From NCBI GenBank assembly GCA_963798085.1, contig CAWCRS010000003.1:713573-777572 (forward strand): a stretch of DNA of 64,000 bases. Reading direction: 5' to 3'. Below the pieces are notes generated by a model. The model was given only the letters and a program-made list of their open reading frames with translations. It had not been told where the DNA came from and did not search any database. This DNA is from an uncultured Gemmatimonadales bacterium (GTDB taxonomy: Bacteria; Gemmatimonadota; Gemmatimonadetes; Longimicrobiales; RSA9). Below, one piece after another: positions 26,757 to 59,725 of the stretch (the first letter of the stretch is position 1; every line of letters starts with the position of its first letter). The position numbers and the translations under genes are program-made.

Positions 26757-26993
26757 TTACGCGGGGTCGGGCGCGGTTTCCGCGGGGCCGAGGAGTTCGC
26801 GCAGGGAATCGGTACGCGTGGCGCGGCGGTTCTCGTCGGCGATCTGCTGGGCGATTTCCTCGCGCACGATGCCGACGCTGCTGGGCGCTTCGATGCCGAT
26901 GCGTACGCCGCGGCGGCCGCACTGCAGGATGATGATGCGGATGCCGCCGGCGATGAGCACGGCGCTGCCCGGTTGGCGATTCAGAACCAGCAT
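26757..26993 (-). CDS. csrA: carbon storage regulator CsrA
   Basis: 78 aa reading MLVLNRQPGSAVLI...GIRIIILQ...VRIGIEAPSSVGIVREEI. It is the last gene of the flgK operon. Confidence 0.9.
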   Translation of the reverse strand: MLVLNRQPGSAVLIAGGIRIIILQCGRRGVRIGIEAPSSVGIVREEIAQQIADENRRATRTDSLRELLGPAETAPDPA

Positions 26994-28417: not shown

Positions 28418-28915
28418 TCAGACCTGCCGATCCAGGAGCGCGCCGTGATCAGCGCCTCCCAGCCCTCCACCCGAAGTCACTGCGCCGCTCAGGACCTGGA
28501 TCAGTCGATTGCCCTGCTCCAGCGCGCCCTCGAGCACGCGGCGGTTGATGCGGATCTCACGGGCCAGAATGCGGGCTTCGTGACTCACCCGATCCCTCGT
28601 TTCCGCGAGTTCCAGCGTCATCTCATCTCCCAGTATCGTCTCCAACTGGTGCAAAGGCGTAGTTTCCGAGCCGGTCAGGATCGCCATCAGGGTGCGGCGG
28701 CGGATCTGCGCCTCGCGCAGCGTGCCCAGCACGCGGTGCGCGGCGAAGACGCTGCCATCCACCACTTCGAGGTCATCCGCGGCAATGCCTTCCCGCTGGC
28801 GGCGCAGAATCCCGTGCAGCTCGCTCAGCAGCCGCTCTTCCGCGGCCAGCGCCTCGGTGAGCAGCGCGCTGTCAGGCGGCGCCAGCTCCAGCACGGTGTT
28901 GTCCGCGCGCATCAT
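28418..28915 (-). CDS. FlgN-like export chaperone (hypothetical)
   Basis: 165-aa helical protein between flgI/J and flgK. The call rests on synteny and composition only. Confidence 0.4.
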   Translation of the reverse strand: MMRADNTVLELAPPDSALLTEALAAEERLLSELHGILRRQREGIAADDLEVVDGSVFAAHRVLGTLREAQIRRRTLMAILTGSETTPLHQLETILGDEMTLELAETRDRVSHEARILAREIRINRRVLEGALEQGNRLIQVLSGAVTSGGGLGGADHGALLDRQV

Positions 28916-30261
28916 TGGCCGCCTCCGGGGTTCTGCTGCTGCGATGGCAGCTTGTCGACCAGCTGGCGATACAGCGCATCACCGATCCGGTGCTGCTTCA
29001 CGGCGGCCGCCTCGGCGACGTGCTCGTCCATCATGCTCGTGAACATGGCTTCGCCTTCGCCGCCGTCGAGCGCGCCGTCCTGTGGCACCGTGTCGCGCAT
29101 GGCCTTGAACAGCTGTTCCATGAACACACCCTCCAGCTGGCTCGTCGCCTTGCGCAGCCGGGCCTTGTCATCATCCGGTCCGCCGGCACCCAAACCCGGC
29201 GTTAGCGAGTCGAGTGGGCGGATCATTCGGACTTTCACCTCCGCCGTCAGCGCGCCCACGCGGTGCAGCGATTCGAAGATCGCCGCGATCACCGGTGCGG
29301 GTGCACCTACGGCCTGCAGCGCGGACGCGACATCCTGCACACTCGCGCCTGGCGCCACTCGTACTTCGCCGGCCGCAGGCTGATCCGTACGGGTCGCGCC
29401 CACGGTCAGGGTCAGGCCGCCGTGGCTCACCACGCCCGGCCCCACTGTCACTTCGCCACCAACCACGACCGTGCCGTCGCGTGTATCCACCAGCACCGTC
29501 GCCGCGGCGTCGCGCTTCACGCGCAGGTCCGCGATCTTCGCCAGTGTCACCGCAGTGCCACCGGCCGAGTCCTTCAGCGTCAGAGCCACCGCGCCGGGGT
29601 CTTCCACCTGCGCGCTGTTCTCGCCGATCGCCGTGTTGATCGCTTCCGCGATTTTCACGGCGGTCCCTATGTTCGGCTCACGCAGCAGCAACCTTGAGGG
29701 CGAAGTGACGGCCGGTTTGGGCAGGTCTGCCAGCAGCAGCGCGCCATCCGGAATTCTCGCCGTCGTTTCCACGCTGTAGCCGCCGCGCGCAACTTCGCCC
29801 TCGCTCAGCAGTAACGGTCCCTGCGCCGTGGCCACGGCGGGACTGCCGGGATCGAAGACGAGTGGCGTCGCCCAGAGCACACCGCCGCGCAGGGAAGAGG
29901 CATCGCCCACGGAGGCGACGTGCACCTCGAAGCGACCGCCCGGCCGCAGGAACGGCGAGGCCTCCGCCGTGACCAGCACGGCGGCGACGTTGCGCGTGCG
30001 CAGCACTTCCGCCGGCACCTCGATGCCGAAGTTGCGCAGCAGGTTCACGACGGACTGCACGGTGTGCCGCGCGCCGAAGCTGCCAATGGCGCGATCGCCT
30101 GTGCCGTCCAGACCCACGACCAGGCCGTAGCCGACGACGCGCACCGGCACGTTCACGTCGGTTATGGCCAGATCGCCAATGCGCGCGTCCTGCGCGCGTG
30201 CCTCGCTGCCGCCTGCAATGAGGGCGGCCGCGAGCACAACGGGGAGAAGCGTTTGCCTCAT
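28912..30261 (-). CDS. flgI: P-ring protein FlgI fused in frame to a FlgJ-type rod-binding domain
   Basis: It has a Sec signal (MRQTLLPVVLAAALIAGGSEARA). The FlgI body runs through ...HRVGALTAEVKV. There is no stop, and then come 104 aa from an internal ATG (29224-29226): ...KATSQLEGVFMEQLFKAMRDT...GEAMFTSMMDEHVA...IGDALYRQL. That segment matches the Rod-binding / FlgJ N-domain pattern. Confidence 0.8.
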   Translation of the reverse strand: MRQTLLPVVLAAALIAGGSEARAQDARIGDLAITDVNVPVRVVGYGLVVGLDGTGDRAIGSFGARHTVQSVVNLLRNFGIEVPAEVLRTRNVAAVLVTAEASPFLRPGGRFEVHVASVGDASSLRGGVLWATPLVFDPGSPAVATAQGPLLLSEGEVARGGYSVETTARIPDGALLLADLPKPAVTSPSRLLLREPNIGTAVKIAEAINTAIGENSAQVEDPGAVALTLKDSAGGTAVTLAKIADLRVKRDAAATVLVDTRDGTVVVGGEVTVGPGVVSHGGLTLTVGATRTDQPAAGEVRVAPGASVQDVASALQAVGAPAPVIAAIFESLHRVGALTAEVKVRMIRPLDSLTPGLGAGGPDDDKARLRKATSQLEGVFMEQLFKAMRDTVPQDGALDGGEGEAMFTSMMDEHVAEAAAVKQHRIGDALYRQLVDKLPSQQQNPGGGQ

Positions 30262-33230: not shown

Positions 33231-34361
33231 TCAGTGTGTTAGAGCAGTTGCCGCAGTCCTGGCCTGACCCTGCCGCGGCCCCCGTCGAGGGGAAGTTTCT
33301 GCCGCAACCGGCAGCTTTGGCCGACCCGTCACCAGCAGCACGGCCGCGTCACGCGGCAGTCCGGTCTGGCGTGCAATGGCCTCCGCGTCCAGCCCCTTCT
33401 GCGCCAGTGTGCGCGCCGCCCACACGCGCGCGTCCGCATTGATGGCGGCGGCCGGCACTGCCGTCGACCGCCGTGGCCGCCGCAGCCAGGTCACGCCCAG
33501 AGCCAGCAGCGCGAGCGCGATGGCGCCCGAGACAATGGGCAGAACGGGCAGCCTGCCCGGCACGGTCGCGATGCGCCTCGCCGCGGCCGCGAGGGTCGAG
33601 CCTGCTGCGCGTATGGCCCGTGTCAGCCGCGCGGGCACGCTGCGCAGTGTTGCCAGCACCGTGGCTGTCGCGCTGCTGCGTGTGGGCGCTGCCTGCTGTG
33701 GCGGCTGACCCTGCGTGGCGCCCGCCCTGCCCTGCATCCCGCTGTTCGGGTTGTCGGTCGCTTCCCTGCCGGACCCGGCCGAGCGGGCGGCGGCGCGGGC
33801 CGCGGTAACGGGCAGCACCGGTGTTATTGCAGTGTTAGCACGGCCGCTGCTGTCGGGTTCGAGCCAGAGGCTGGCGCCGGCGTCGTCGTCTATCATGCCA
33901 TAGGCGCGCAGGCCGGGCGCATCCACGATGAGGCGCAGCGTGTCGGCGCTCGTTTCCGCGTTGAGCGCCAGCAGACCGGCCGCGCTCACGGCTGCTTCAT
34001 CCGCGGCGGCGGGTGCCGGTGTGCCCGTGAGGGTGACATAGAGACGGACCCGGCCTTCGAGCAGGAACGGCTCGCTCAGCACGGGCAGGGCGCTGGTGTG
34101 CATGCCGGTGTGCACGTAGACGCGGTCCGCGTCGCGTTCCACGCGCAGCCGTGCCGTGGCGGGTGCCCCGCCCGAGCGATGCGTCGCGGCCGGGACGGGC
34201 GCCGGCGGCACGTGCACCCTGATGTGCGGCATGGCAATGACGGGCAGGCCCACACCGAGCGTGTCCTGCGCCGCCAGCTGTGCCGCCAGGCAGCAGAGTG
34301 CGGTAATGGCCAGCAGTGCCACGCGCGTGGCGAGGCCGGTGGCAGATTCGTGCTTCCGCAT
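33231..34361 (-). CDS. hypothetical bitopic membrane protein translationally coupled to fliA
   Basis: 376 aa. It has a signal peptide, a domain of about 235 aa outside the membrane, a TM helix (LPVLPIVSGAIALALLALGVTWL) followed by RRPRR, and a cytoplasmic helix-turn-helix-like tail (GLDAEAIARQTGLPRDAAVLL). Its ATG shares one nt with the fliA TGA. Confidence 0.55.
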   Translation of the reverse strand: MRKHESATGLATRVALLAITALCCLAAQLAAQDTLGVGLPVIAMPHIRVHVPPAPVPAATHRSGGAPATARLRVERDADRVYVHTGMHTSALPVLSEPFLLEGRVRLYVTLTGTPAPAAADEAAVSAAGLLALNAETSADTLRLIVDAPGLRAYGMIDDDAGASLWLEPDSSGRANTAITPVLPVTAARAAARSAGSGREATDNPNSGMQGRAGATQGQPPQQAAPTRSSATATVLATLRSVPARLTRAIRAAGSTLAAAARRIATVPGRLPVLPIVSGAIALALLALGVTWLRRPRRSTAVPAAAINADARVWAARTLAQKGLDAEAIARQTGLPRDAAVLLVTGRPKLPVAAETSPRRGPRQGQARTAATALTH

Positions 34362-40956: not shown

Positions 40957-42315
40957 CTACACGAAGCTGTGGACCAGGCTGCCCACCAGCAGGGACCAGC
41001 CATCCACGAGCACGAACAGCAGCAGCTTGCAGGGAAGCGCGATCATGGTGGGCGGCAGCATGAACATGCCCATGCTGGTCAGCACCGCGGAAACCACGAG
41101 ATCGATGACCACGAACGGCAGGAAGATCGCGAAACCCATCTGGAACGCCGCGCGCAGCTCGCTGGTCGCGAACGCCGACATCAGCACGGGCAGCGACACA
41201 TCCTCCGGCGCATCCGGCATGGGCTGTCCACTCAGCTCGACGAAGTGGGCCAGGTCCTGCTCCGGCACCTGCCGCAGCATGAAGGCGCGCAGCGGCTGAC
41301 TGCCCGTCTGCATCATCTGCACTTCATCGATTTCGCCGTGCATCCACGGCTGGATCGCGGTGGAATTCACTTCCGCGATCGTGGGCGCCATGATGAAGCC
41401 CGTCAGCAGCAGCGCCAGCGCGGCCAGCAGCTGCGCCGGCGGCACGCTCTGTGTGCCCAGCGCCTGCCGCATGAAATGCAGCACCACGAGCACGCGCGTG
41501 AAGCTGGTCATGAGCAGCAGCAGCGTGGGCAGTGTCGCCAGCAGGCCGATGAAAAGCACGGTGCCCACGGTACCGCTGATGCGCAGATCGGATTTCGAGC
41601 CGTCACCGAACTGCAGCGCCAGGCGAGGCACACTGCCCTGCGCCGGCAGCTGCGCGATCTGGGCGGGGTTCAGCTTCTGTGTACTGGCGGTTGCGGCCGG
41701 CGCTGCGCCGCGGCCGCCCTGGTTCGGCTGTGCCGCCGGATTCGTGTTCGCCGAGCTGCCGCGACCGCTCGCATTCTGCGTCTGGTTCTGCGCGGCGGCG
41801 CCGCCGCTCTGCGCGCCGCGGCCCGCCTGATTCCCCGTACCGCCATTCTGTGCTGCCTGCACCCGCGCGGGCGCCGCGGACAGCGGCTCGGCGTGCACGC
41901 GTGCGCTCGCGAAGGACAGGGAGAAGCCCGCGGCGGCCAGCACGCGCAGCAGCCCGAGCGCGCGCAGACCGCGCGCGGTGGCTCCCGTCGCGCCGGCGGC
42001 CGAGGCGGTGTCGTCGCCTGCATCACCGGACGCGTCCCGCAGTCCGGCCTTCAGCGATTCCTGCGGTGTCAGCTCGGTGAGCAGGTGGACGCCGCCATCG
42101 CCTACGGAGACGACCAGCACGCGATCGGCCACGCGCACCGCGGCCACGCCCTGGCGCGGCCCGATGGCGGTGCGCTGCAGCACGTTGAGGCGCAGGCCGG
42201 AGCGGCCCGCACCGGTCACACCGGCAAAGCGGCGGGCCGCGCCCACCGCCAGTCCCAGCAGTCCCAGCACCAGCCCCAGCGCCAGGATCAGACCTAACAC
42301 GGCGCTAACGGTCAC
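40957..42315 (-). CDS. fliP: FliO-FliP fusion protein
   Basis: Residues 1-95 form a FliO-like TM plus domain (LNVLQRTAIGPRQGVAAVRVADRVLVVSVGDGG). A signal-like segment follows (LGLLRVLAAAGFSLSFASARVHA), then a stretch of about 100 aa rich in Q, N, G and A. The FliP core comes last (LLLMTSFTRVLVVLHFMRQALGT ... FLPFVVIDLVV). Confidence 0.8.
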   Translation of the reverse strand: MTVSAVLGLILALGLVLGLLGLAVGAARRFAGVTGAGRSGLRLNVLQRTAIGPRQGVAAVRVADRVLVVSVGDGGVHLLTELTPQESLKAGLRDASGDAGDDTASAAGATGATARGLRALGLLRVLAAAGFSLSFASARVHAEPLSAAPARVQAAQNGGTGNQAGRGAQSGGAAAQNQTQNASGRGSSANTNPAAQPNQGGRGAAPAATASTQKLNPAQIAQLPAQGSVPRLALQFGDGSKSDLRISGTVGTVLFIGLLATLPTLLLLMTSFTRVLVVLHFMRQALGTQSVPPAQLLAALALLLTGFIMAPTIAEVNSTAIQPWMHGEIDEVQMMQTGSQPLRAFMLRQVPEQDLAHFVELSGQPMPDAPEDVSLPVLMSAFATSELRAAFQMGFAIFLPFVVIDLVVSAVLTSMGMFMLPPTMIALPCKLLLFVLVDGWSLLVGSLVHSFV

Positions 42316-43664
42316 GGCTGCTCGTCAGCGACGTTCTGTGAGTGCAGCCGGGTGATGCGAATGCCGAACTGCTCGCCGATCACCACCACTTCGCCCTCGG
42401 CGAAGGGCCGGTCGCCCACGATCACGTCGACGGGCTCGCCCACCAGCCGGTTCAGGGCGATGACCGAGCCGCGACCCAGCTCGAGCACGTCCTGCACGGT
42501 CATGCGCGTGCGGCCCAGCTCAATGGTCACCGGCAGTGTCACCTGAAAGACGTTGCTCAGGGATCCGGCCCCGCCCGTCGGCTGCGCTTCCAGCTCGGCC
42601 AGCTCCATTCCGCCCTCGCCCTTCGATTCCGGTTGTACAATGGTTGCCATTATGCTCATTCTCCGGTGCGGTTCTTCCTGCTCGTTGTCCTCCGCCATCA
42701 CACCGATGACGCGCGCCGCCAGCGTGCGGCCCTCGCGTCCGGGCAGCGCCACGAAGCGCGGTGTGCCTTCGATGCGCACAGCCAGCTGCGTCTGTGCCGG
42801 CAGGCCCGTGTGCCACACCGTGCCGGGCACGGTGCTGGCCATGTCGCCCAGCGCGATGCCGAACAGTGGTGTTCGCACTGTGATCTCCACCGTCGCCGTG
42901 CGTACTGCCTTTTCCGCGGCCACGCGGTCCAGCTCGCGATCGCGCGAGGCGCCGCGCGGCTGGTTCACGCGCTGCGTGCTCGAGGCGCTGAAGAATTTCT
43001 CCAGCACCACGAAGGGCACGCAGATGAGCAGGCTGCCCTCGAAGTTGGCCGCCTTCACCTCGATGTTGGCCACCAGCATGGGATCTTCGCGGTTGGCCGT
43101 GCGCAGCAGCTCGGGCACCGCCTCGAAGCGGTTCATGGTGAGGCCCAGCGGTACGTTGTCCTTCCAGATCTCGTTGAGCTGCGCCGCCGTCTGGTCCGCC
43201 GCCATGCGCACCACCATGCGCTCCAGCACGGTGAGCGAACGCTCGGGCGCGGGCGGTTCGTCGTTCGAGCCCAGCAGCCGGTCCACGAGGAAGAAGGCGA
43301 AGGCGCGGCCGAAGTCGATAACAACCTGTTGGCCGCTGCCGTTGGCCACGTCGAATACGAAGCTGGCCGTGGGATTCGCCAGCGACAGCGTGAACTCGCC
43401 GAAGCTCAGCTGCTCCACACCCAGCAGACGCAGATCGATGGAGGTGCGCACCCTCGCCGTCAGCCAGCTCTCCAGCGCCTTGCACAGCATGCCGTACTTG
43501 GCGCCCAGCGCGCGCAGCTTGTCCTTCGATACCAGGTTGGGGCGGCGGAAATCGTAGACCTGCACGTCTTCGCGTGCGTCCGCCGGCGTCTCGACGTTCG
43601 GCGACGGCTCGCCCCCGCTGAAGAGGCGGTCGATCTCCTGCTGGGAGAGCGTTTCTGATGTCAC
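42312..43664 (-). CDS. fliM: FliM with C-terminal FliN domain (FliM-FliN fusion)
   Basis: 450 aa. It has the CheY-P binding N-terminus (LSQQEIDRLFSG), the FliM middle domain and a first SpoA-like domain. The last 115 aa, from an internal ATG (42657-42659), form a FliN-type SpoA domain (LPVTIELGRTRMTVQDVLELGRGSVIALNRLVGEPVDVIVGDRPFAEGEVVV). No separate fliN is present. Confidence 0.8.
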   Translation of the reverse strand: MTSETLSQQEIDRLFSGGEPSPNVETPADAREDVQVYDFRRPNLVSKDKLRALGAKYGMLCKALESWLTARVRTSIDLRLLGVEQLSFGEFTLSLANPTASFVFDVANGSGQQVVIDFGRAFAFFLVDRLLGSNDEPPAPERSLTVLERMVVRMAADQTAAQLNEIWKDNVPLGLTMNRFEAVPELLRTANREDPMLVANIEVKAANFEGSLLICVPFVVLEKFFSASSTQRVNQPRGASRDRELDRVAAEKAVRTATVEITVRTPLFGIALGDMASTVPGTVWHTGLPAQTQLAVRIEGTPRFVALPGREGRTLAARVIGVMAEDNEQEEPHRRMSIMATIVQPESKGEGGMELAELEAQPTGGAGSLSNVFQVTLPVTIELGRTRMTVQDVLELGRGSVIALNRLVGEPVDVIVGDRPFAEGEVVVIGEQFGIRITRLHSQNVADEQP

Positions 43665-44828: not shown

Positions 44829-46086
44829 CTACCGCTTGAGGTTGACCAGCTCCTGGAGCATCTCGTCGCTGGTGGTGATCACGCGCGCGTTGGACTGGAA
44901 GCCGCGCTGCGCGGTGATCAGGTTCGTGAATTCCTGCGCCAGGTCGACGTTGGACATTTCGAGCGCGCCGGACGTGACGACGGACTGGCTGCCTTCGCCG
45001 GCGAAGCCCAGCACGGCGGCGCCGGAGTTGGGCGATACCGTGTACATGTTGTCGCCCACGCGGATCAGGCCCGACGGATTGTTGAAGTCGGCCAGCACCA
45101 GCTGCGCCAGCGTCTGTGTCGTGCCGTTGCTGAATGCGCCCACGATCGTGCCCGTCGGATCAATGCTGATGCGCTCGAGCAGACCCATCGTGTAGCCGTC
45201 CTGCTCTTTCAGCACCGCGGTCGAGGGCCCGGCGAACTCGGAAAGGCCGTTGATCTCGCCTGCCGTGCCGAACGTCAGCGTGACTTTCTGCGAGGCGGCG
45301 AAACCGGCGGGCGTGAACTCGAAGTCCACGGTCTCGGGATCCAGCAGCGAGCCATTCGTGTCGAACGTCACGGTACCGGTGTCGTTCACGTACGTCGAGC
45401 CGGGCTCGTTGTTGGTCGTCGTGATCGCGTAGTCCCACTCGTTGGCGTTGGCGTTCTTGGTGAACTCGATGTTCAGGTCGTGCTTGCCGCCCTGCTCGTC
45501 ATACACGGTGATCGAATGTGTTGCGCGTCAGGCCCTGCGCCGCGCCCGCATCGAGGTTGCCGCCCAGGACCGCGTTCTCGGTGGCGTGGGCCGGCGCCTT
45601 CTGGCCGAAGGGCAGCTTGATGTCGTCGATCGTGTCGGTCAGCACGCCGTTCACAGGCACGCGACCCTGCACGATGAAGCCGTTCGTGGACGCCACCAGC
45701 TTGCCCGACGCGTCCAGCTGGAACGCGCCCGAGCGCGTGTAGAAGCGCTGCGTGCCGTCGGACACGACGAAGAAGGAATCGCCCTGGATGGCCAGGTCGG
45801 TGTCCACGCCGGTCGTCTCGAGGTTGCCCTGCGTGAACATGGCGTCGATGCTGCCGATGTTCATGCCCAGGCCGATCTGGATCGGGTTGCGGCCGCCGGA
45901 CACGTTGGTGGCGCCGCCCGGCGGACGGCTCGCGCCCTGCACGATCTGCGCGAACGCTTCCTCGAATGTCACACGACTCGACTTGAACGCCACCGTGTTC
46001 ACGTTGGCGATGTTGTTGCCGATCACGTCCATTTTGACCTGGTGATTGCGCAGGCCGGACACGCCGGCGAACAGAGAACGCATCAT
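44829..46086 (-). pseudogene. flgE: flagellar hook protein FlgE, one frame disruption
   Basis: The N-fragment is ORF 45499..46086 (MMRSLFAGVSGLRNHQVKMDVIGNNIANVNT...). The C-fragment is ORF 44829..45506 (...ITVYDEQGGKHDL ... NLITAQRGFQSNARVITTSDEMLQELVNLKR). The junction lies at about 45510-45525. Confidence 0.85.
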
Positions 46087-46109
46087 TTCGGATTCTCCTC
46101 GTTGCCTGT

Positions 46110-46787
46110 TTACTGGCTGATTTCGATGACGTTGCCGAGCGGGATCGTGATCGAGCCGCTCGACAGCACCGGCCCGCTGGCGGTGTACCTGACTCCGTCG
46201 ACGCGCAGTCGCGAGTACGTGGTCACGCTGACCGCCGTGCCCGCGCTGTCCTTCACATCGAGGCTGTAGGTGTACTGACCGGCCGGCACGTTGCCGACCA
46301 GCTTGCTCAGGTCGATGTTCTGGTCACCGGCATCCAGCCGGCCCACATCGTAGCGCGCCACTTCCTTGCCCGTGTCGTCCTTGATCACGACCTGACCGAC
46401 GCCACCCTCGCCGCCCACATTCACCTTCACATCGAGCGGGCCGCTGGCCGGCATCTGCAGCGCATCACCCTGAATGAGCACGCTCTTGCCCAGCAGCTGG
46501 GCTGCGGTGCTGGCATTGATGCTCTGGATCAGCGAATCATTGCCTGCGCTCTGCGCCTTCAGCTCGTCGCCGATGTTAATGAGCTGTTCGACCGCCGAGA
46601 ACTGCGCCAGCTGAGCCGCCATTTCCTTGGGATCCGCGGGATTCATGGGGTCCTGGTTGCGCAGCTGGGATACCAGAAGCTGCAGGAAGTCGTCCTTGCC
46701 GAGGACGCTGCCTGCTGTGGCCGCCGCCGCGCTCGACGTCGAGCTGGCTGTCGTGCTGCCGCCGGCACTCGTGATGGGATCGATCAT
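46110..46787 (-). CDS. flgD: hook capping protein FlgD
   Basis: Contains LGKDDFLQLLVSQLRNQDPMNP plus an Ig-like C-domain. The ATG at 46787 overlaps the fliK stop (ATGA). The track ORF extends to 46856. Confidence 0.9.
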   Translation of the reverse strand: MIDPITSAGGSTTASSTSSAAAATAGSVLGKDDFLQLLVSQLRNQDPMNPADPKEMAAQLAQFSAVEQLINIGDELKAQSAGNDSLIQSINASTAAQLLGKSVLIQGDALQMPASGPLDVKVNVGGEGGVGQVVIKDDTGKEVARYDVGRLDAGDQNIDLSKLVGNVPAGQYTYSLDVKDSAGTAVSVTTYSRLRVDGVRYTASGPVLSSGSITIPLGNVIEISQ

Positions 46788-48877
46788 TTGCCATTCTCCT
46801 TGCCATGTCTCCGGGCGTTCCGGTGTTCCTGCTGCGCGCCGCCCTGGCGGGCCCACGCGCTTTCGTTCTGGTTGCTGCCATTGCCTTTGTTGCGCGACGC
46901 GTCCCTGCCCGCCTGCGGCATCACCAGCGGCGAGGCCTCGCCTGCTTCGCGGATCAGTACCGAAGCATCCAGCCCCCGCCGTTCGAGGATCTGACGCAGT
47001 TCGCCGGTGTGCGTGGCCAGCTGCGCCGCGGCCGTCGGATCAGTCACATCAATGGCCGCATTCACGCTGGTGCCGCGCAGGCCCACGCGGATGCGGGCGG
47101 CATCACTGCCATCGGCGCCCGTGATGTGGAGTGTGACGCCGGAGGCAGGCGAGGCTTGCGCCGCATCCTGCAGCGCGAGTACACGCGCCACGCGTGCGCC
47201 AATGTCCACGCCCTGCGCTGCGCCCGCGCCCGCCGCCTGCTGCGGCTGCGATCCGGCCACGGCGCGCCAGAGCGCGCGGGCCGCGTCGTCGCCCTGCAAA
47301 CCTGCGGTCAGCGGATCCGCGCTGCTGCGACCATCACCATCACTGCTCGTGCCCTGCTCGCGCAGAGCGGCCGCCAGCTGGCTGGCCCGTGTGTTGCGCG
47401 CGGTCAGACTGCCCGTGTCCGTGGTCTGCGGCGCACCGGCGGTCGTGTTGACCGTGGCCCCGGATGCGGCCGCGAGTGCGCCTCGCGCCGCCGCAGTGAC
47501 CGCGGCCGGTGCCTCCAGCAGGCTGGCCACGCGCGCCACCTGCGCGGTCGCCGCCACTGTCGCCACCGGCGCGGGCGCCGAAGCGTCTCCGCTCATGACC
47601 GGCGGGGCTGCGGAGCGGCCGCCTTCCAGCGCACCGTCAGGAGCCAGCTGGCGAATGGTCTGCATGTCGCCCGCCGCGCCGCGCAGTTCGATGTGACCGG
47701 GATCGGACGGGCCCAGTGTGCTCAGTCCTTCCTGTGCGCAGAGCTGCGCCAGGCGGGCGTACTGGGCGTCGTCGCCTCCCTCGATGACGACATTGGCCGC
47801 GAGGCCGGCAGTGTGGTTCGAGTGCTTCGTCCACGTCACCGTCTGGCCCGGCTGCGTGCGACCCTGCGCGTACAGCGCATCCTGCCGCGGCTGCGAGCGC
47901 CAGGTCTCGACCACGTGCACATCCTCGCCGAATTCCTGCTTCATGCGCTCGATCACACGCTCCAGCTTCGTGCGGAACTCGGGCGCCAGTGCGTCCAGCG
48001 AACGTTGCACGTGTGTGCTGTCCGTATCCGTCGCCACCGGTTGCGCCAGCGCCGCGGCTGCGGCCTGTGCGGCAGCCGCGCTGTCCGCGGCATTGGAGGC
48101 GACACTGTTCTTCTGTGCGCCGGCGTTGTCAGAGGCGGCCGCACCGCTGCCAGCGGTCGGGGCCGGAGTGCGGTTGTCTGACTGGCTGTTAGGATCGTCC
48201 GTCGCCGTGCCGCCGCTGGCGCGGCCTGCCGCGGAGGCGCTGCGGCGCGACCCCTGGTCCGTGGCTGTGGCATCATCCAGCGCCTGCGCGGTGGCCCGTA
48301 TGGCTGCCCGCCGCGTGCCCGGGTCGCCCGGCTCACTCGCCGTTGCCTCCGGCTGCATCAGGCCGGCCGGCCTTGCCGTGCCGCCATGGCCCGCGTCGCT
48401 GGCCGGGGCCCGTGCGCGGGCCAGCAGCAGTCCGAAGTCCGGACTGCCTGACACGGTATTATCGTTGCCCGGGTACGCCGCCGCCTGGGCGAGGCGTCCG
48501 TTGGCATTGCTGCCGTGGGCGCGCGTCTCGACGGACGCACTCGCGCCCGACAGCAGGCCGGCCACGCCGGCTTTGAGACGTCCCGCGGCTGCACGCGCTT
48601 CACCCGCATCCTGCATTGCGTCACCGCCTGTGTCATTGGTACTGCTGCCTGTTGCTGACGCGGCACCCGTCGCCCCGTCACCCACCACCTCCGCGTCATC
48701 CATGAAGCGGGCGAGAAGACTGCCAAACCCCGGTACCGCCCTGCCCCGTTCAGCGCGCAGGCGGACGTCTGACGACGTCGCCTGCAGACCGGCCAGGGCC
48801 CGCTGCCCCGCGTGCTCACGCAACGGTGCAGAGTTCGGCGATTGCGCGCCGATCGCGGAGCCCGGGATCATCGCCAT
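46784..48877 (-). CDS. fliK: hook-length control protein FliK with an embedded M15/LAS peptidase-like domain
   Basis: 697 aa. The N-terminus is FliK-like (GFGSLLARFMDD) with low-complexity ruler sequence. Residues 293-400 carry the peptidase-like pattern. The C-terminus is a T3S4/Flg_hook-type domain (GVTLHITGADGSDAARIRVGLRGTSVNAAIDVTDPTAAAQL...LRQILERRGL). Confidence 0.8.
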   Translation of the reverse strand: MAMIPGSAIGAQSPNSAPLREHAGQRALAGLQATSSDVRLRAERGRAVPGFGSLLARFMDDAEVVGDGATGAASATGSSTNDTGGDAMQDAGEARAAAGRLKAGVAGLLSGASASVETRAHGSNANGRLAQAAAYPGNDNTVSGSPDFGLLLARARAPASDAGHGGTARPAGLMQPEATASEPGDPGTRRAAIRATAQALDDATATDQGSRRSASAAGRASGGTATDDPNSQSDNRTPAPTAGSGAAASDNAGAQKNSVASNAADSAAAAQAAAAALAQPVATDTDSTHVQRSLDALAPEFRTKLERVIERMKQEFGEDVHVVETWRSQPRQDALYAQGRTQPGQTVTWTKHSNHTAGLAANVVIEGGDDAQYARLAQLCAQEGLSTLGPSDPGHIELRGAAGDMQTIRQLAPDGALEGGRSAAPPVMSGDASAPAPVATVAATAQVARVASLLEAPAAVTAAARGALAAASGATVNTTAGAPQTTDTGSLTARNTRASQLAAALREQGTSSDGDGRSSADPLTAGLQGDDAARALWRAVAGSQPQQAAGAGAAQGVDIGARVARVLALQDAAQASPASGVTLHITGADGSDAARIRVGLRGTSVNAAIDVTDPTAAAQLATHTGELRQILERRGLDASVLIREAGEASPLVMPQAGRDASRNKGNGSNQNESAWARQGGAQQEHRNARRHGKENGK

Positions 48878-48888
48878 GCCGGAACCGA

Positions 48889-49446
48889 CTACCGCCCGGC
48901 CAGCAAAGCCTTCGCGATGGCCGTGCCCCGTTCACCCTTGAACTTGGCCAGGATCGCTGCGGCCTTGCGTTCCGAGAGAGTCAACAGCACTGCCTTCACC
49001 GGAGCATCCTCCAGCGGTTCCAGGATGCGTGCCGCTTCTTCCGGCCGCATCGCTGCGAGAATGCGCGCCAGCCGCGCGGGAGGCGCATTGTGCGCGCTGA
49101 GTGAATCGAGGCGCATGCTGTCCGCGGGCGAGGTCTCCGGTGGCTTCGCGCCCGCGCTGGCCGCTGCGTGCTGCGCCTCGCCGGCTGCGGCTTCGTGCGC
49201 CTGCGCGCTGTCGCCCGTCATGGCGCTGGCCGCCGCCGAGTCAGGCTGCGCGTCTTCTGCCTGCCCCGTCGCGTTCGCCGCGGAATCCGCGGCCAGCGAG
49301 TCGGCGCGCAGAGAATCGGCCTTGAGCGAGCCGGCCGCCATTTCGGCGGCGTACCGGGTCGCGGCCTTGCGCATGGAAACGGTGGTGCCGCCGCCCGCGC
49401 CCAGCGCGAAGCACACGGTCGCGGCAATCACGACTTTCATGTTCAT
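48889..49446 (-). CDS. flagellar-locus protein with MgtE-N-like domain (YlxF/FlbB position)
   Basis: 185 aa with an N-terminal TM and the C-terminus [44 protein letters not shown]. It lies between fliJ and fliK, as in the Bacillus fla/che operon. Confidence 0.5.
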
Positions 49447-49904
49447 GAAACGTCATCCTCCTGCTGGCGGCGCGTGAACCGGGCGAGCGCCACAGCATCC
49501 ATCGTCGTGCGGTCCAGCCGCTCCTCGCCTTCCCGCCACAGTGTGAGATAGCGCTCGCGCAGCCGGTCCATGACCTGACGCTGCGTTAGAGCGTGCCGGA
49601 ATTCATTGCGCGCCGTGTCCACGCGCGCGCCGGCTTCTTCCTGCGCCTTTTCCGCAACCGCCAGGTGTTCGTCGAGCTGCGCAATGAACAGCGCCATCTG
49701 CTGCAGCGTCCCTGCCGGCGCGGGTGTGCCGCTGCCACGGCTGGTGCCTTCGACCCCGCGATTGCGCGCGGCTTCGATGGCCAGGCGCTTCTGTTCGGCC
49801 AGTACCGCCTCGTTGTGCGCTTCCGCGAGCCGGGTGGCACTTTCCTTTTCCCGCTGCTCCCGTACTTCGAGCACCTTCTGCAGGCGAAACCGGAATCCAC
49901 TCAC
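49443..49904 (-). CDS. fliJ: flagellar export chaperone/stalk FliJ
   Basis: 154-aa coiled-coil protein ([26 protein letters not shown]...). The GTG at 49904 overlaps the fliI stop (GTGA). In the track it is hidden in the 3' part of ORF 49443..50798. Confidence 0.65.
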
Positions 49905-51238
49905 GATGCACCACCCGCCACGATTTTCGCCGCCAGCTCCAGCACGGCCTTTCTCGTATCGCCGAAACCCGTGCGCTCTGTCGGCGACTGCACCAGGAAC
50001 GATTCCAGCGCGGGCCGCACGCGCAGTGCGGTGTCCAGCAGTGCGTCCGTGCCCGGCTGGTAGGCGCCCACGGCGATCAGGTCTTCCTTTTCGCGGTAGG
50101 CCGCCATGCATGCGCATCACCAGGTCGGCCGCCCGCCGGTGCTCGGCATCGGCCACGTGGTCGCGCACACGGCTGCTGCTCTCCAGCGCATCGATCGCGG
50201 GGAAGTGCGACGCCATGGCCAGCTTGCGCGTCAGCACGATGTGCCCGTCCAGGATCGAGCGCGCGGCGTCGGCCACCGGCTCGTTGAAGTCATCGCCTTC
50301 GACGAGCACCGTGTAGATGCCGCTGATCGCGCCATCGGCCGCGTTGCCGGCGCGCTCCAGCAGCCGGGGCAGTGCCGCGAACACGGAAGGCGGATAACCC
50401 TTCGTCGTGGGCGGCTCGCCTACCGCCAGTCCGATCTCGCGCCAGGCCATCGCCACGCGCGTGATCGAGTCGACCATGAGCAGCACGTGCTTGCCCTGGT
50501 CGCGGTAATACTCGGCGATGGCCGTGGCGAACTGCGCGCCGCGCGCGCGGATCAGTGCGGCCTCGTCGCCCGTCGCCACGATGACCACCGAGCGCGCCAG
50601 GCCTTCCGGGCCCAGCGAGTTCTCGATGAAGTCGCGCACCTCGCGGCCGCGCTCGCCCAGCAGCGCGATCACGTTGACGTCGGCCGACGTGTTGCGCGCG
50701 ATCATGCCGAGCAGCGTGCTCTTGCCGACGCCGCTGCCCGAGAAGATGCCGACGCGCTGGCCCCTGCCGATGGTGAGCAGGCCGTCGATGGCGCGCACAC
50801 CGGTCGTGCAGCGGCTCGCCGATCATGCGGCGCTCGAGCGGGTTCGGCGGGTTGGTCTGCCATGGGCACGCGCGCGGTTGCCGCGCGGACCTGGCCCTTG
50901 CCGTCGATCGGGATGACCGAGGCCGTTGAGCACGCGGCCGAGCAGCGCCGGGCCCGACGTCCGGCGCCCAGGGAGCGGCCCAGCGGCTGCACGCAGGCTG
51001 CCGGGGTGCAGGCCATCCAGCTCGCCCAGCGGCATCAGCAGCACGCCGCGCTCGTGGAAGCCGACGACTTCGGCGAGCACCGTGTGACTCGCCGCGCGTC
51101 GCGCGCACACGGCACAGCTCGCCCAGTGCCACGTCCATGCCCGAGGCCTCGATGACGAGCCCGACCACGCGCGTCGTGCGGCCGAGGCCAATGGAAGCGC
51201 GTCGACGCTCTCCACCTGCGGATCAGTGACTCAACCAT
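49901..51238 (-). pseudogene. fliI: flagellar ATPase FliI, at least 6 frame disruptions
   Basis: Conserved pieces are scattered over all three frames. In order they read MVESLIRR / VESVDALPL / GRTTRVVGLVIEASGMDVALGELCRV / HTVLAEVVGFHERGVLLMPLGELDGL...LLGRVLNGLG / PIDGKGQVRAATARVP / [15 protein letters not shown] / [31 protein letters not shown]...(Walker A, B) / [18 protein letters not shown].... The fragments lie in ORFs 50823..51215, 50290..51168, 50702..51016, 49443..50798 and 49901..50107. Confidence 0.85.
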
Positions 51239-52937: not shown

Positions 52938-54405
52938 TCACGACTCCTTCATCCAGGCGCGCAGCATGCGCGCGGCCGTTTCCGGACTGTCCGCCGAGCG
53001 TTGCAGCATGGCCGCGAACGGCGAGGGCGCTATGACCGGCGCTTCCGGAAATTGCAGCGCTTCGGCTCTGCCGCCAGCCGCCGCGGGCAGTGCGCCGCGC
53101 GCCGCCGGAGAGGGCACGGCCGCAGCCGCGCGCAGTGCCTTCATCAGCTGCAGTGCGACCACAAACGCGAGCGCCAGTCCAATGCTCATGAAGATCTCGT
53201 TCCTGTAGCGCGGCACCATCATGAGGACCGATGGCTTGCTGACCGGTTCCTGGGTGGGCACGCTGACCGAGAACGGCGCCGACATGACGGTGATCGCATC
53301 GCCGCGCGTCTTGTCCAGGCCAATGGCGTTGGAGACCAGCTGGTCCACGCGCGACAGCTCATCCGGCGTCCACGGCTGCGGCGTCTTGCCATCGGCCGCC
53401 GTGCGCTCATTCAGCATCACCGCGACCGTCAGCCGGTGCACCGTGCCGGCGGCGCCGGAGAAGGTCTCGATGCTCTTCGTCGTCTCGTAACTCGCCGATG
53501 ATGCCGATGACGCCGCGCCCACCTGGCCTGGACTGGGCATGATATCGGAGCGCTCTTCCTTGGTCGTGACCTGCTCGTCCGGATTCAGCTTCTGCGTCGT
53601 GCGATCGATCTTGTCGAAGTTCAGGTCGGCGGCCACGCGAACACGCGCGTTACCCGTGCCCACGGTCTGCCCGACCAGGTCTTCGGCCTTGTGCTCGAGG
53701 TAGGCTTCCACGTCGCGGCGCATCTGCAGCTGGCGCTTGCTCAGTCCCGCCGCCGAGCCCGGCTCCACCGCGGCCGTCAGCAGGTGACCCGCATCATCCA
53801 GCACCGTCACGCGATCGCTTTCCAGGCCGTCCACGCTGCTCGCGACGAGCGAGGAGATGGCATCCACCAGCTCTTCGCCCGGCCGCGTGCCGCCCCGCGT
53901 AGCGTCAGCACCACCGACGCAGCTTCCGGCTGACTCGTCTTGCGGAACCCCGACGACTCGTTGATCGCAATGTGCACCGCGCAGACTGCACACCGCGCAT
54001 CTCGCCGATCGTGCGCTCCAGCTCGCCTTCCAGCGCCCGCCGGTAGTTGATGCGCTGCGTGAAGTCGGTCATGCCCCAGGCCGGCTTGTCGAACAGCTCG
54101 AAGCCCGGGCGGCCCTTGGCCGGCAGACCATCCCGCGCCAGTGCGACTCTCGCCTTGGCCAGGTCGCTTTCCGCGACCAGGATCCTGCGAGCCGCCATTT
54201 CCAGCTGGTATTTAATGCCCTGTTCGTCCAGCTTGGTCGTGACCTGGCTCACTTCGTCCAGCGAGAGCCCGGGCATGAGCGGCACATAGTCGGGCCGCGC
54301 GGCAATGCGCGCGATCCACAGGATCCCCACAATGGAAGCGGCACCTGCTGCCAGGATGACAAAGGAACGCCCGCGACCGGCGCGCTCCATCCAGTTCCGA
54401 AGCAA
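52938..54405 (-). pseudogene. fliF: MS-ring protein FliF, two frame disruptions
   Basis: The N-fragment is ORF 53905..54405. The segment VHIAINESSGFRKTSQPEAASVVLTLRG is in the third frame. The C-fragment is ORF 52938..53993. The junctions lie at about 53977-53982 and at the C4 run 53893-53896. Confidence 0.9.
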
Positions 54406-56862: not shown

Positions 56863-58264
56863 TCAAGCCTCCCCCACAACCTCGTCTTCGAGGCCGTCGG
56901 GGCGATTGAGCTTGTTGCGCAGTGTCCGGACGCTGATGCCGAGCAGGGTGGCGGCGCGGGTGCGATTCTGTTTCGCGGTCTCGAGCGCGGTCTCGATGAG
57001 ACGGCGTTCGGCCTCTGCGATATTCAGTGTGGACAGCACCACCGCGTCTTCAATGCCCGTGTGTCTGGTCCGTGCGGGACGCGCCTCGGCCATGACGTGC
57101 GTGGTACCGGGCAGATCGAAGGCGTCGGGCCCGATCACTGTCGTGCGCGTCATGATCACGGCGCGCTCAATGGCGTGCGCCAGCTCGCGGACATTGCCGG
57201 GCCAGGCGTGTGCGCGCAGCCGTTCCATCGCTTCTGCTGACACGCCGGTTATTTCGCGCCCGGATTCCTGGGCGGCGCGGGTCACGAAGTGCTGCACCAG
57301 TGCGGGCAGGTCTTCCAGTCGCTCGCGCAGTGGCGGCACGCGGATCTGCACGACGCCCAGACGATAGTAGAGGTCTTCGCGGAAGCGGCCTTCCTGGATC
57401 TCGCGGCGCAGGTCGCAGTTGGTCGTTGCGATCACGCGCACGTCGACGCGTACGGGCGAGTGCCCGCCCACGCGCTCGAACTCCTGTTCCTGCAGCACGC
57501 GCAGCAGCTTCGGCCTGCAGGTCGAGACGCATCTCGCTCACTTCATCCAGCAGCAGCGTGCCGCGGTGCGCCCGCTCGAACACAGCCTTGGTCTGGCGGA
57601 TCGCGCCTGTGAAGGCGCCGCGCTCGTGGCCGAACAGCGTGCTTTCCACCAGGGCTTCCGGCAGTGCGGCGCAGTTGATCGCGATGAACGGACCATTGCG
57701 CCGGTCGCTCCGTTCGTGAATGCCCCTCGCCAGCAGTTCCTTGCCGGTACCGGATTCGCCGTGCAGGAGCACGGTGGCGCGCGCCGTGGCCACGGTCTCC
57801 ATGGCTTCCACCACCTGCTGCAGCGCTTCGCTCTCGCCCACGATGGTGCGCTCGGCGCGCTCGCTCACGCGTGCGCGGAGGCGCGCGGTCTCTTTCCGCA
57901 GGCGGTTCGATTCAATGGCCTGGTTGACCACGACCAGCAGCTGGTCCGAGCGAATCGGCTTGGACAGATAGTCCACCGCGCCCGCCTTCATGGACAACAC
58001 CGCGTGCTCCACACTCGGCGCGCCGGTCAGCATGATGAGCGGCACCGTGGCGCCGTTCTGGGTCAGGTAATGCAGGAATTCGAGGCCCGAGCTGTCGGGC
58101 AGGCGATAGTCGGATACAATGAGATCCACCGTCTCGGCTTCCAGCACATCGATTGCCGACTCCACATCGGCCGCCGTGAGCGCGCGGTGGCCGGCGCCGG
58201 CCAGCGTCCGCCGCAGAACGGAGAGCACTGCGGGTTCGTCATCGACACAGAGAATCGTCGCCAT
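56863..58264 (-). pseudogene. NtrC-family sigma-54 activator (receiver + AAA+ + HTH; FleR/FlrC/FlbD-like), one frame disruption
   Basis: The N-fragment is ORF 57167..58264. It carries the receiver DLIVSDYRLPD, Walker A GESGTGKE and the GAFTGA loop. The C-fragment is ORF 56863..57498 (LQEQEFERVGG...WPGNVRELAHAIERA...TRAATLLGISVRTLRNKL). The junction lies at about 57509-57514. Confidence 0.85.
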
Positions 58265-58310
58265 TCGCTTCCGTCGGGCTCAGGATCTCGAAGATCCTTT
58301 GCATCCGGTC

Positions 58311-58337
58311 TCAAGTTTCAATCGGCGCCGCCGAGAA
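58311..58337 (+). promoter_or_regulatory. sigma-28-type promoter of flgL-fliW
   Basis: Reads TCAAGTTT-caatcggcgcc-GCCGAGAA with an 11-nt spacer. It lies about 45 nt upstream of the flgL GTG. Confidence 0.7.
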
Positions 58338-58382
58338 TACCGGCCAGATGGACCGGTTCTGTCTCAGGCAACGCGAGGATCC

Positions 58383-59264
58383 GTGAGGATCACAAATCAG
58401 ATCATCGATCGCCGCGCGCTCGAGGCCATTCAGCACAACATGTCTGGTCTCGCGGAGGCGCAGTCACGCGTGTCAACGGGTACGCGTGTGCATACTGCTT
58501 CGGACGACCCTTCGGCTTACGTCGGCATTCAGACCGCCGACCGCCGGCTGGCCGCCCTCGATCAGTATCGACGCAACATCAGTTCGGCAGGAGCCCGCCT
58601 TTCTACCGAAGAAGGCGTACTCGATCAGGTGACGGACCTGCTGACCCGCGCGCGCGAGGTTGCCACATCGCAGGCGGCGTCGAACGGCACAACCTCCACC
58701 CGCCTCGTCGCCAAGTCCGAAGTCGATCAGCTGCTTTCCGAGGTAGTGGCACTCGGCAACACGCGTCAGAGCAACGCCTTCCTCTTCGGTGGGGATTTTG
58801 CCGACAGTGCGCCCTTCACCACGGCAGGCGTGGCCAACCCGAACCGGCCGCCAGCCGGCGGCGGCAGTGTCGAGTACGGCGATGGCCAGACCATGACCGT
58901 GAACCATGACGGTACGCAGGTCTTCCTCGACACCGGCGTCATTGCGTCGCTGCAGCAGCTCTCCACTGCGCTCGGCACGGATGACACCGCCGGCATTGCC
59001 GCCTCGCTGACCAGTCTGTCTGCGAGCTTCGACGGCGTGCAGGGCCTGCTGGGCGAGGTTGGAGCGCGCACGCGGCAGCTGGACACCGCGTCGGCCAACA
59101 TCGATTCCCTCCAGAATACGCTCCAGACCCAGCGGTCCGACCTCAGTGATGCCGATATTGAGAAGGCAGTGTCGGATCTCGCCAGCCGCCAGACCGCCTA
59201 TCAGGCGGCTCTGCTGGCCACGGCGCGCCTGAATTCGCTCTCGCTAACGGACTATTTGCGATGA
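58383..59264 (+). CDS. flgL: hook-associated protein 3 FlgL
   Basis: A GTG start gives (M)RITNQIIDRRALEAIQHNMSGLAEAQSRVSTGTRVHTASDDPSA.... The C-terminus is ...RQTAYQAALLATARLNSLSLTDYLR. The track ORF begins upstream at 58119. Confidence 0.85.
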   Translation: MRITNQIIDRRALEAIQHNMSGLAEAQSRVSTGTRVHTASDDPSAYVGIQTADRRLAALDQYRRNISSAGARLSTEEGVLDQVTDLLTRAREVATSQAASNGTTSTRLVAKSEVDQLLSEVVALGNTRQSNAFLFGGDFADSAPFTTAGVANPNRPPAGGGSVEYGDGQTMTVNHDGTQVFLDTGVIASLQQLSTALGTDDTAGIAASLTSLSASFDGVQGLLGEVGARTRQLDTASANIDSLQNTLQTQRSDLSDADIEKAVSDLASRQTAYQAALLATARLNSLSLTDYLR

Positions 59265-59725
59265 ACGTAAGGAGTGAGGTCGCCGCCGCCGCCACGCTGG
59301 ATGCGCAGCGTGGTGACGCCGGAGCGCCGCTCGCCATGCCCATCGAATTCGATCGTGGCCTTTTCGGTTTTCCCCAGGCTACCTCTTTCCTGCTCGCACC
59401 CACGTCGCGCGAAGGCTTCTACTGGCTGCAGTCGACCGAGCACGACGCGCTCTGCTTCGTGCTGGCCGATCCCTTCGTGTTCTTCCGTGGCTATGTCGTG
59501 GACCTGCCGGACATCGAGGCCGCGTACCTGGGCGCTAAGGTGCCCGGCAATGTGGTGATTCTCGTGACCGTGACGCTGCCTGATGGCAGCGGTCGCGCCG
59601 CATCGGCGAATCTGCAGGGTCCCATCGCCATCAACGTGCGCAACCGCGTCGGCCGCCAGGTGATCCTGAATCAGCCCGGCTTCGGTGTACGCGAGCCGTT
59701 CGACATGACCGTGCGTCAGGGCTGA
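59261..59725 (+). CDS. fliW: flagellar assembly factor FliW (CsrA antagonist)
   Basis: 154 aa. Contains PIEFDRGLFGFPQATSFLL...FYWLQS...FVLADPFVFFRGY...ANLQGPIAINVRNRVGRQVIL. Its start overlaps the flgL stop (ATGA). Confidence 0.85.
   Translation: MNVRSEVAAAATLDAQRGDAGAPLAMPIEFDRGLFGFPQATSFLLAPTSREGFYWLQSTEHDALCFVLADPFVFFRGYVVDLPDIEAAYLGAKVPGNVVILVTVTLPDGSGRAASANLQGPIAINVRNRVGRQVILNQPGFGVREPFDMTVRQG

Follow-up and report, generated by a model that had tools for sequence, protein, structure and literature searches.

A predicted L-Ala-D-Glu peptidase domain embedded in the flagellar hook-length ruler FliK of Gemmatimonadota

How the flagellar rod passes through peptidoglycan is understood in few lineages only. 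In the known solutions, beta- and gamma-proteobacteria use the muramidase domain of FlgJ, and alpha-proteobacteria, spirochaetes, and Helicobacter employ lytic transglycosylases that are separate proteins. Here, we analyzed a 64-kb stretch of DNA (64,000 nucleotides; hereafter, the window) from contig CAWCRS010000003.1 of an uncultured Gemmatimonadales bacterium, in which fliK, the gene for the hook-length ruler, holds what looks like a cell-wall peptidase. An initial annotation had flagged this fold and, from a substituted metal ligand, had suggested that the module binds peptidoglycan rather than cuts it. The question raised by the locus is what a peptidase does inside a ruler. We consider it reasonably probable, taking architecture and mechanism together, that Gemmatimonadota FliK carries a predicted L-Ala-D-Glu peptidase domain that would open the wall for the flagellar rod.

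The protein has four parts, i.e., a disordered N terminus, an LAS/M15 domain of ~110 residues, a linker with a (Val-Ala-x)n repeat, and a C-terminal T3S4 domain. An exhaustive homologue search covering 1.84 billion representatives returned 282 cluster representatives that match the window protein at E ≤ 1e-30; 150 of the 282 were listed, and the alignment and conservation counts given here rest on these 150. In addition, when each species was represented by one genome, a scan yielded at least 391 loci that encode relatives; the top 80 were inspected for taxonomy and gene order. The features of the window protein are as follows.

46784..48877 (stop codon included), minus strand: fliK, hook-length control protein with embedded M15 domain, 697 aa (open reading frame [ORF]; identical public protein P0022; synteny)
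48011..48877, minus strand: N-terminal disordered low-complexity region, residues 1-289 (AlphaFold2 per-residue confidence score [pLDDT] mostly <50; family conservation 0.08)
48704..48736, minus strand: FliK N-terminal motif VPGFGSLLARF, residues 48-58 (conserved in relatives)
48413..48445, minus strand: second copy of the N-terminal motif, SPDFGLLLARA, residues 145-155 (short helix at 149-152 in the AlphaFold2 model)
47666..48010, minus strand: LAS/M15 (Ply500/CwlK-like) peptidase domain, residues ~290-404 (phmmer, profile, AlphaFold2, Foldseek)
47678..48001, minus strand: residues 293-400, flagged by the initial annotation (inside the peptidase domain)
47813..47815, minus strand: His355, first predicted zinc ligand (invariant, 150/150; aligns with the His of SNHNYGVAVD in Ply500)
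47792..47794, minus strand: Asn362, codon AAT, at the second zinc-ligand position (Asp in 149/150 representatives)
47693..47704, minus strand: D392-P-G-H395, predicted general base Asp and third zinc ligand His (both invariant, 150/150)
47522..47566, minus strand: degenerate (Val-Ala-x)n tripeptide repeat VATVAATAQVARVAS, residues 438-452 (family comparison)
46934..47212, minus strand: C-terminal T3S4/Flg_hook domain (FliK substrate-specificity switch domain), residues ~556-648 (Flg_hook and Foldseek)

Is the host protein a FliK at all? We conclude that it is a genuine one because of its gene position, its C-terminal domain, its N-terminal motif, and the disordered, variable regions that flank the peptidase domain. 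The gene order fliI-fliJ-MgtE_N-like gene (ylxF-like position)-fliK-flgD-flgE-fliL was found in the window and in 80/80 related loci, and it corresponds to the Bacillus fla/che order, where fliK stands between ylxF and flgD. The MgtE_N-like gene itself, between fliJ and fliK, is kept in most of the 80 loci. When the window copy alone was searched, Flg_hook (PF02120) scored below threshold (E = 0.012, 15.8 bits versus 29.8), and the same model matched 65 of 80 relatives, the best at 9e-11. AlphaFold2 modeled most of the C-terminal domain (residues ~580-640) with pLDDT >90, and Foldseek matched residues ~575-645 to the PscP SS domain (5cuk, 7e-3) and to the C-terminal domain of FliK (2rrl, 3e-2); for a relative, P0042, the corresponding values were 2.3e-3 and 3e-3. 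Near the N terminus, relatives carry a PGF-x-x-LL-x-RA motif at about residues 30-37, which is helical in the P0042 model (residues 30-40), and the stretch DFLALLAGAL close to the N terminus of Salmonella FliK resembles it. Outside the folded domains, the number of residues upstream of the peptidase domain ranges from 0 to 362 among the relatives, and residues 405-555 of the window protein have pLDDT mostly <50. Residues 1-289 presumably comprise the export signal and the ruler. Domain content, gene position, and ruler features thus place the protein in the FliK family, while its secretion by the flagellar type III system, its role in hook length, and its switching of FlhB specificity are predictions from sequence. 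The N-terminal motif occurs twice in the window protein (PGFGSLLAR and PDFGLLLAR, ~97 residues apart), which suggests an internal duplication of the N-terminal region; two copies were seen in just 4 of the 150 relatives.

Turning to the embedded domain, residues ~290-404 are an LAS/M15 peptidase domain, with similarity well above chance. Comparison of residues 280-410 with PDB sequences by phmmer recovered the L-alanyl-D-glutamate peptidase Ply500 (2vo9, E = 5.1e-7) and LysB4 (6akv, E = 6.2e-6), in alignments that span WRSQPRQDALYAQGRTQPG and SNHTAGLAAN, and a profile built from the 150 relatives recovered the same two at 6e-12 and 8e-12, respectively. With the 150-relative alignment as input, AlphaFold2 gave pLDDT 91-98 across residues ~290-400, and the top Foldseek match of this model was again 2vo9 (E = 1e-7, TM 0.61; identity to Ply500 ~30% over 130 columns). 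Further matches included LysB4 (6akv), ChiX (5opz), VanX (1r44), the RB49 and T5 L-Ala-D-Glu peptidases, and hedgehog N-domains, so that essentially the whole LAS superfamily was covered; the model of P0042 reproduced the fold (2vo9 at 5e-7, 2mxz at 1e-3). Pfam and NCBIfam scans of the whole 697-aa protein gave no useful match, owing to the low-complexity flanks, and the isolated domain matched Pfam VanY at E = 0.006 (16.8 bits, cut-off 25). A word-indexed homologue search with the domain alone returned chiefly small stand-alone CwlK-like proteins plus one fragment. Little suggests a recent horizontal insertion: the G+C content of the domain (~0.68-0.72) is near that of its surroundings, and the domain occurs throughout the phylum.

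These results bear out the initial annotation where it placed an LAS/M15 fold in frame within FliK, and both the residues it quoted and their coordinates (residues 293-400 at 47678..48001; the Asn362 codon at 47792-47794) are correct. The profile and structural comparisons that it had proposed agree on 2vo9, with Pfam staying below threshold. Its LAS signature was written too loosely, although all the residues it indicated are present: the actual motif is R327..R331-Q332-x2-L-Y-x-Q-G-R340, S353-x-H355-x2-G-x-A-x-[D/N]362, D392-x-x-H395-x-E397. The roles of D392 and H395 are assigned from the published D-x-x-H arrangement of Ply500; the printed sequence alignments end before this motif.

Could the composite ORF be an artefact of assembly or frameshifting that joined a small M15 gene to fliK? 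The window offers some grounds for suspicion: fliI (in three frames), flgE, fliF, and a sigma-54 activator gene are frameshifted, and flgI-flgJ, fliM-fliN, and fliO-fliP each run together in one ORF. Against this, the single-ORF architecture recurs in 78 independent assemblies and in the 282 protein cluster representatives, and in the window, relatives match the M15 and the C-terminal parts in one and the same frame. The gene was found by motif search in 78/80 loci, with a single ORF through the domain in all 78; this ORF reaches a stop codon in 70 of them, at least 277 and usually at least 330 residues past the motif, and runs off the contig in the remaining eight. The M15 domain never occurred as a separate gene in the 80 inspected loci. 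Moreover, the 150 listed representatives span 276 to 861 aa, with most at 400-860 aa, and in many of them a single continuous match covers query positions ~240 to ~690. We regard the artefact as scarcely credible, and a chimeric ORF, which the initial annotation had named as a possible refutation, is refuted by the 282 representatives, the 80/80 syntenic loci, and the 78 single-ORF loci. A public protein identical to the window FliK (P0022) sits in a cluster with a single member, which comes from one 1.1-Mb contig. In a frame plot of G+C at third codon positions, the codon-position signal was masked by the Ala/Gly-rich sequence of the ORF.

The search of related genomes proposed in the initial annotation thus found the same insert in 78 loci as a single ORF, and the idea of a one-off architecture is untenable given 282 representatives at E ≤ 1e-30, at least 391 loci, and full synteny in the 80 inspected. 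Almost all of these 80 loci are labeled Gemmatimonadota (Gemmatimonadaceae, Gemmatimonas, Longimicrobiales). As read from these genomes, M15-bearing FliK is the standard FliK across many Gemmatimonadota. One locus (CALQGY020000005.1), in a metagenome-assembled genome labeled "Candidatus Kuenenia stuttgartiensis," also has a block of the Gemmatimonadota type (fliI-fliJ-fliK(M15)-flgD-flgE-fliL), and mis-binning of this contig is the probable explanation.

We then asked whether the domain has been kept as an enzyme. The 150-sequence alignment contains 19 invariant columns, all inside the peptidase domain, among them H355, D392, H395, R327, R331, Q332, G339, R340, W349, and S353. Mean column conservation is highest in the peptidase domain (0.70), compared to 0.53 in the T3S4 domain and 0.08-0.22 in the linkers. 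The general base D392 and the substrate-binding R327, R331, Q332, and S353 are present in 150/150 sequences, and the zinc-ligand triad His-x6-Asp...His is complete in 149/150 representatives. Since the catalytic set is invariant and conservation along the protein peaks in this domain, the family is predicted to be catalytic, namely, an active L,D-endopeptidase of L-Ala-D-Glu specificity. The same pattern bears on a purely structural role. On this reading, the domain would fold into a spacer that adds length to the ruler, or into a ratchet that keeps it from sliding back after leaving the channel, and descent from a peptidase would be of no consequence. In other species, hook length is set by the length of FliK, and the domain does add ~110 residues between the N terminus and the T3S4 domain. 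However, the 19 invariant columns fall on the metal ligands, the general base, and the LAS substrate-binding motif, while the linkers reach only 0.08-0.22, and we consider a mere spacer very unlikely.

The exception in the zinc triad is the window copy itself, in which H355 and H395 are present and position 362 is Asn. Position 362 is Asp in 149/150 representatives, the window protein being the sole exception, and it is Asp in 77/78 genome loci, the remaining locus being a pattern miss. Does this Asn make the domain a noncatalytic peptidoglycan-binding module that anchors or positions the ruler at the wall? The hedgehog N-domains among the Foldseek matches lend this idea some support. LAS folds with degenerate metal sites that serve as binding modules exist among such domains. 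An Asp-to-Asn change in the active site (D287N) of TagX, moreover, abolished activity in a zymogram (PMC5061870), and the window copy, with its zinc-ligand Asp replaced by Asn, is probably inactive or only weakly active. The substitution is nevertheless confined to 1 of 150 representatives and occurs in none of the 77 genome loci read, all other catalytic residues are invariant, as expected of an enzyme, and around the lone exception, adjacent genes carry at least five frameshifts. Because the neighboring flagellar genes are frameshifted, a sequencing error or local gene decay is a more likely origin of Asn362 than adaptation, and in either case, it is weak ground for an adaptation to "binding, not cutting." A binding module is, therefore, unlikely, and would at most apply to this copy; the corresponding suggestion of the initial annotation finds no support in the family.

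How might a catalytic ruler act? From the observed architecture, its conservation across the phylum, and the invariance of its catalytic residues, we infer the following course. As an early flagellar type III substrate, FliK would be threaded unfolded through the nascent rod and released to the periplasm during rod growth. The peptidase domain would fold on emerging at the rod tip, bind zinc, and cut the peptide stems of peptidoglycan locally, so that the hole for the rod is made or widened; the same FliK would later measure the hook. This wall-opening role would be that of the muramidase half of FlgJ in beta- and gamma-proteobacteria, and FlgJ at this locus is a single-domain protein without a muramidase. 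In agreement with the initial annotation, neither a FlgJ muramidase domain nor any other recognizable wall hydrolase besides fliK was found in the 64-kb flagellar region, where FlgJ consists of a rod-binding part of ~100 aa only. It is plausible, though we advance it only tentatively, that the wall is breached by a ruler-borne L,D-endopeptidase at the rod tip, either released or held on the still-threaded chain, with one protein first drilling the wall and then measuring the hook.

Related cases are known from the literature. When beta-lactamase is fused to FliK, the fusion protein arrives in the periplasm and provides resistance (PMC13344023); an enzyme attached to FliK can thus pass the export system and fold in that compartment. 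Type VI clusters encode TagX, an L,D-endopeptidase similar to Ply500, which cleaves the bond between L-Ala and D-Glu and which the type VI machine needs to cross peptidoglycan (PMC5061870). Outside the beta- and gamma-proteobacteria, the two functions of FlgJ are carried by two separate proteins (PMC8517470).

An exported enzyme could also have a job unrelated to the flagellum, e.g., lysing neighbors or general wall turnover, with FliK as the vehicle only. The nearest solved relatives of the domain are indeed phage endolysins, and Salmonella FliK ends outside the cell once the hook is complete. Yet FliK is secreted in small amounts only, the domain stands mid-ruler in every orthologue with no separate gene in the 80 loci, and a diderm target wall is unreachable from outside without a part that crosses the outer membrane, and no such part is evident. 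We consider a role as cargo quite improbable.

Several points weigh against a wall-opening enzyme at the rod. Asn362 and Cys380 (Ala in 99% of relatives) are the two deviations of the window copy at columns that are at least 95% conserved, a number of deviations seen in only 4/150 sequences, and with them, this copy may have lost its function. The Pfam M15-type models (VanY, M15_3) stay below their gathering scores for the window domain and its relatives, which makes the domain a divergent branch, and the predicted bond specificity (L-Ala-D-Glu) is extrapolated from the nearest solved relatives. The FlgJ that has a rod-binding domain only, with no hydrolase domain and no room for one, is the one FlgJ examined, that of this window; similarly, the hydrolase survey covers 64 kb of the genome, and a dedicated flagellar lytic enzyme could be encoded elsewhere. 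Finally, for every member of the family, the proposed mechanism is a reading of sequence.

Compared to known systems, the protein combines familiar parts in an arrangement that seems undescribed. Like FliK of Salmonella and E. coli (PF02120; 2RRL), it has the flgD-flgE neighborhood, a disordered N terminus with an F-x-x-LL motif, a T3S4-type fold, and a basic tail; unlike in these, its N-terminal part is separated from T3S4 by a folded zinc peptidase domain of ~110 residues and a (Val-Ala-x)n repeat. With Ply500, LysB4, EndoT5, CwlK, and ChiX (LAS, MEROPS M15), it shares the fold and the motifs (Y/W)RSxxxQxxLYAQGR, SxHxxGxAxD, and DxxH, but those enzymes are stand-alone or joined to a wall-binding domain, whereas here the peptidase is embedded in a ruler secreted by a type III system. 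The needle-length rulers YscP and PscP follow the same logic of ruler plus T3S4, and among solved structures, the C-terminal domain matches the PscP SS domain best; to our knowledge, no enzymatic domain has been reported in either. Injectisomes use separate lytic transglycosylases. TagX of the Acinetobacter type VI system is likewise a Ply500-like L,D-endopeptidase in the gene cluster of a trans-envelope machine (PMC5061870), but it is a separate, inner-membrane-anchored protein of another machine, whereas in FliK the domain is fused to a secreted substrate. The dual-domain FlgJ of beta- and gamma-proteobacteria offers an analogy, as an early type III substrate that brings a peptidoglycan hydrolase to the site of rod assembly (PMC8517470). 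There, however, the carrier is the rod cap and not the ruler, the enzyme is a glycosidase and not a stem-peptide peptidase, and there is no homology: FliK has neither a Rod-binding nor a glucosaminidase/muramidase domain, so the likeness is a functional analogy only.

The (Val-Ala-x)n repeat is a second family trait. At least four consecutive [VIML]-A-x triplets occur in 128/150 relatives, ~50 residues after the DxGH motif, with up to 14 copies (e.g., ARVADVARVARVADVARVAEVARVA; relatives P0023-P0051, alignment A1). Arg, Gln, and Thr predominate at the third position, and Pro-Gly usually closes the repeat. In the window protein, it is degenerate and predicted to be unstructured, and for a relative with a long perfect repeat, AlphaFold2 gave no confident repeat structure. 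Other FliK proteins are not known to have a counterpart. If the ruler does act as a drill, the repeat beside the domain could be a new regulatory or tethering element. Cysteine is absent in 139/150 relatives, and such near-absence would be compatible with export in an unfolded state.

The window as a whole is one large minus-strand flagellar region. Its gene order starts with the sigma-54 activator, fliE, fliF, fliG, fliH, fliI, fliJ, the MgtE_N-like gene, fliK, flgD, flgE, and fliL, continues with fliM/N, fliO/P, fliR, flhB, flhA, flhF, flhG, fliA, flgF, flgG, flgA, and flgH, and ends with flgI, flgJ, flgN, flgK, csrA, motA, motB, flagellin, fliD, and fliS. The neighboring genes referred to above are the following.

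46110..46787, minus strand: flgD, hook cap (Pfam FlgD, FlgD_ig, FLgD_tudor)
48889..49446, minus strand: MgtE_N-like small gene directly upstream of fliK (weak MgtE_N/FliG_M match)
44829..46095: flgE, frameshifted at ~45515-45541 (FlgE of relatives aligns in two frames)
49904..51183: fliI, frameshifted at ~50104 and ~51086-51183 (FliI of relatives aligns in three frames)
52938..54405: fliF, split into two overlapping ORFs (frameshift at ~53905-53993)
56863..58264: sigma-54 (NtrC-like) activator, split into two overlapping ORFs (frameshift at ~57167-57498)
28912..29226, minus strand: flgJ-like, ~104 aa, with no domain beyond the rod-binding one (Pfam Rod-binding, residues 386-433 of a 449-aa ORF)

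The fliK stop codon overlaps the flgD ATG (ATGA), which is preceded by AAGGAG, an arrangement of translational coupling. The frameshifts, at least five in essential flagellar genes between ~44.8 and 58.3 kb of the window, are a sign of either decay of the operon or poor polishing of this stretch of the metagenome assembly. Outside it, long genes of the window (kdpA, kdpB, kdpD, flhA, cheA, and one for a GH31 enzyme) appear undamaged. flgI and flgJ (28912..30261) share one frame without a stop between them (...AEVKVR-MIRPLDS...), which represents either a natural FlgI-FlgJ fusion or a lost stop. Single ORFs likewise cover fliM-fliN (42312..43664), where the fliM ORF of a relative ends separately, and fliO-fliP (40957..42315). 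The filament cap gene fliD (19661..22747) encodes an unusually long protein of 1028 aa, a large part of which is left unassigned by the matches to FliD_N, Flagellin_IN, and FliD_C, and a 376-aa ORF between flgF and fliA (33231..34361) has no Pfam match except a weak one to DUF2802 (E = 0.0018). Both csrA (26757..26993) and fliW (59261..59725) are present, 32 kb apart, and fliW is preceded by a second, flagellin-like gene, which lies on the plus strand (58119..59264).

Together, these analyses confirm the observation made by the initial annotation and support its interpretation in part; the finding is broader than first thought, being a phylum-wide family, and less special on the Asn point. Literature searches linking FliK to M15, VanY, or L-Ala-D-Glu peptidases, or to Gemmatimonas, found no description of the fusion, which, therefore, seems undescribed. 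The annotation's claim that no such FliK had been described holds to the extent that no paper was found, but some orthologues are already labeled "M15 family metallopeptidase." Other names in public databases are "hypothetical protein," "VanY/endolysin," and "YcbK (DUF882)," and many orthologues carry a precomputed PF02120 hit, so that both halves are visible in databases; their combination does not appear to be discussed.

If the proposed role is correct, Gemmatimonadota would have a third solution to the problem of flagellar wall penetration, beside the fused FlgJ and FlgJ-recruited lytic transglycosylases. FliK would also carry an enzymatic payload in nature, a situation known so far only from engineered FliK-beta-lactamase fusions. 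Finally, because its orthologues are labeled "hypothetical protein" or "M15 family metallopeptidase," inventories of flagellar genes in Gemmatimonadota probably count FliK as missing.

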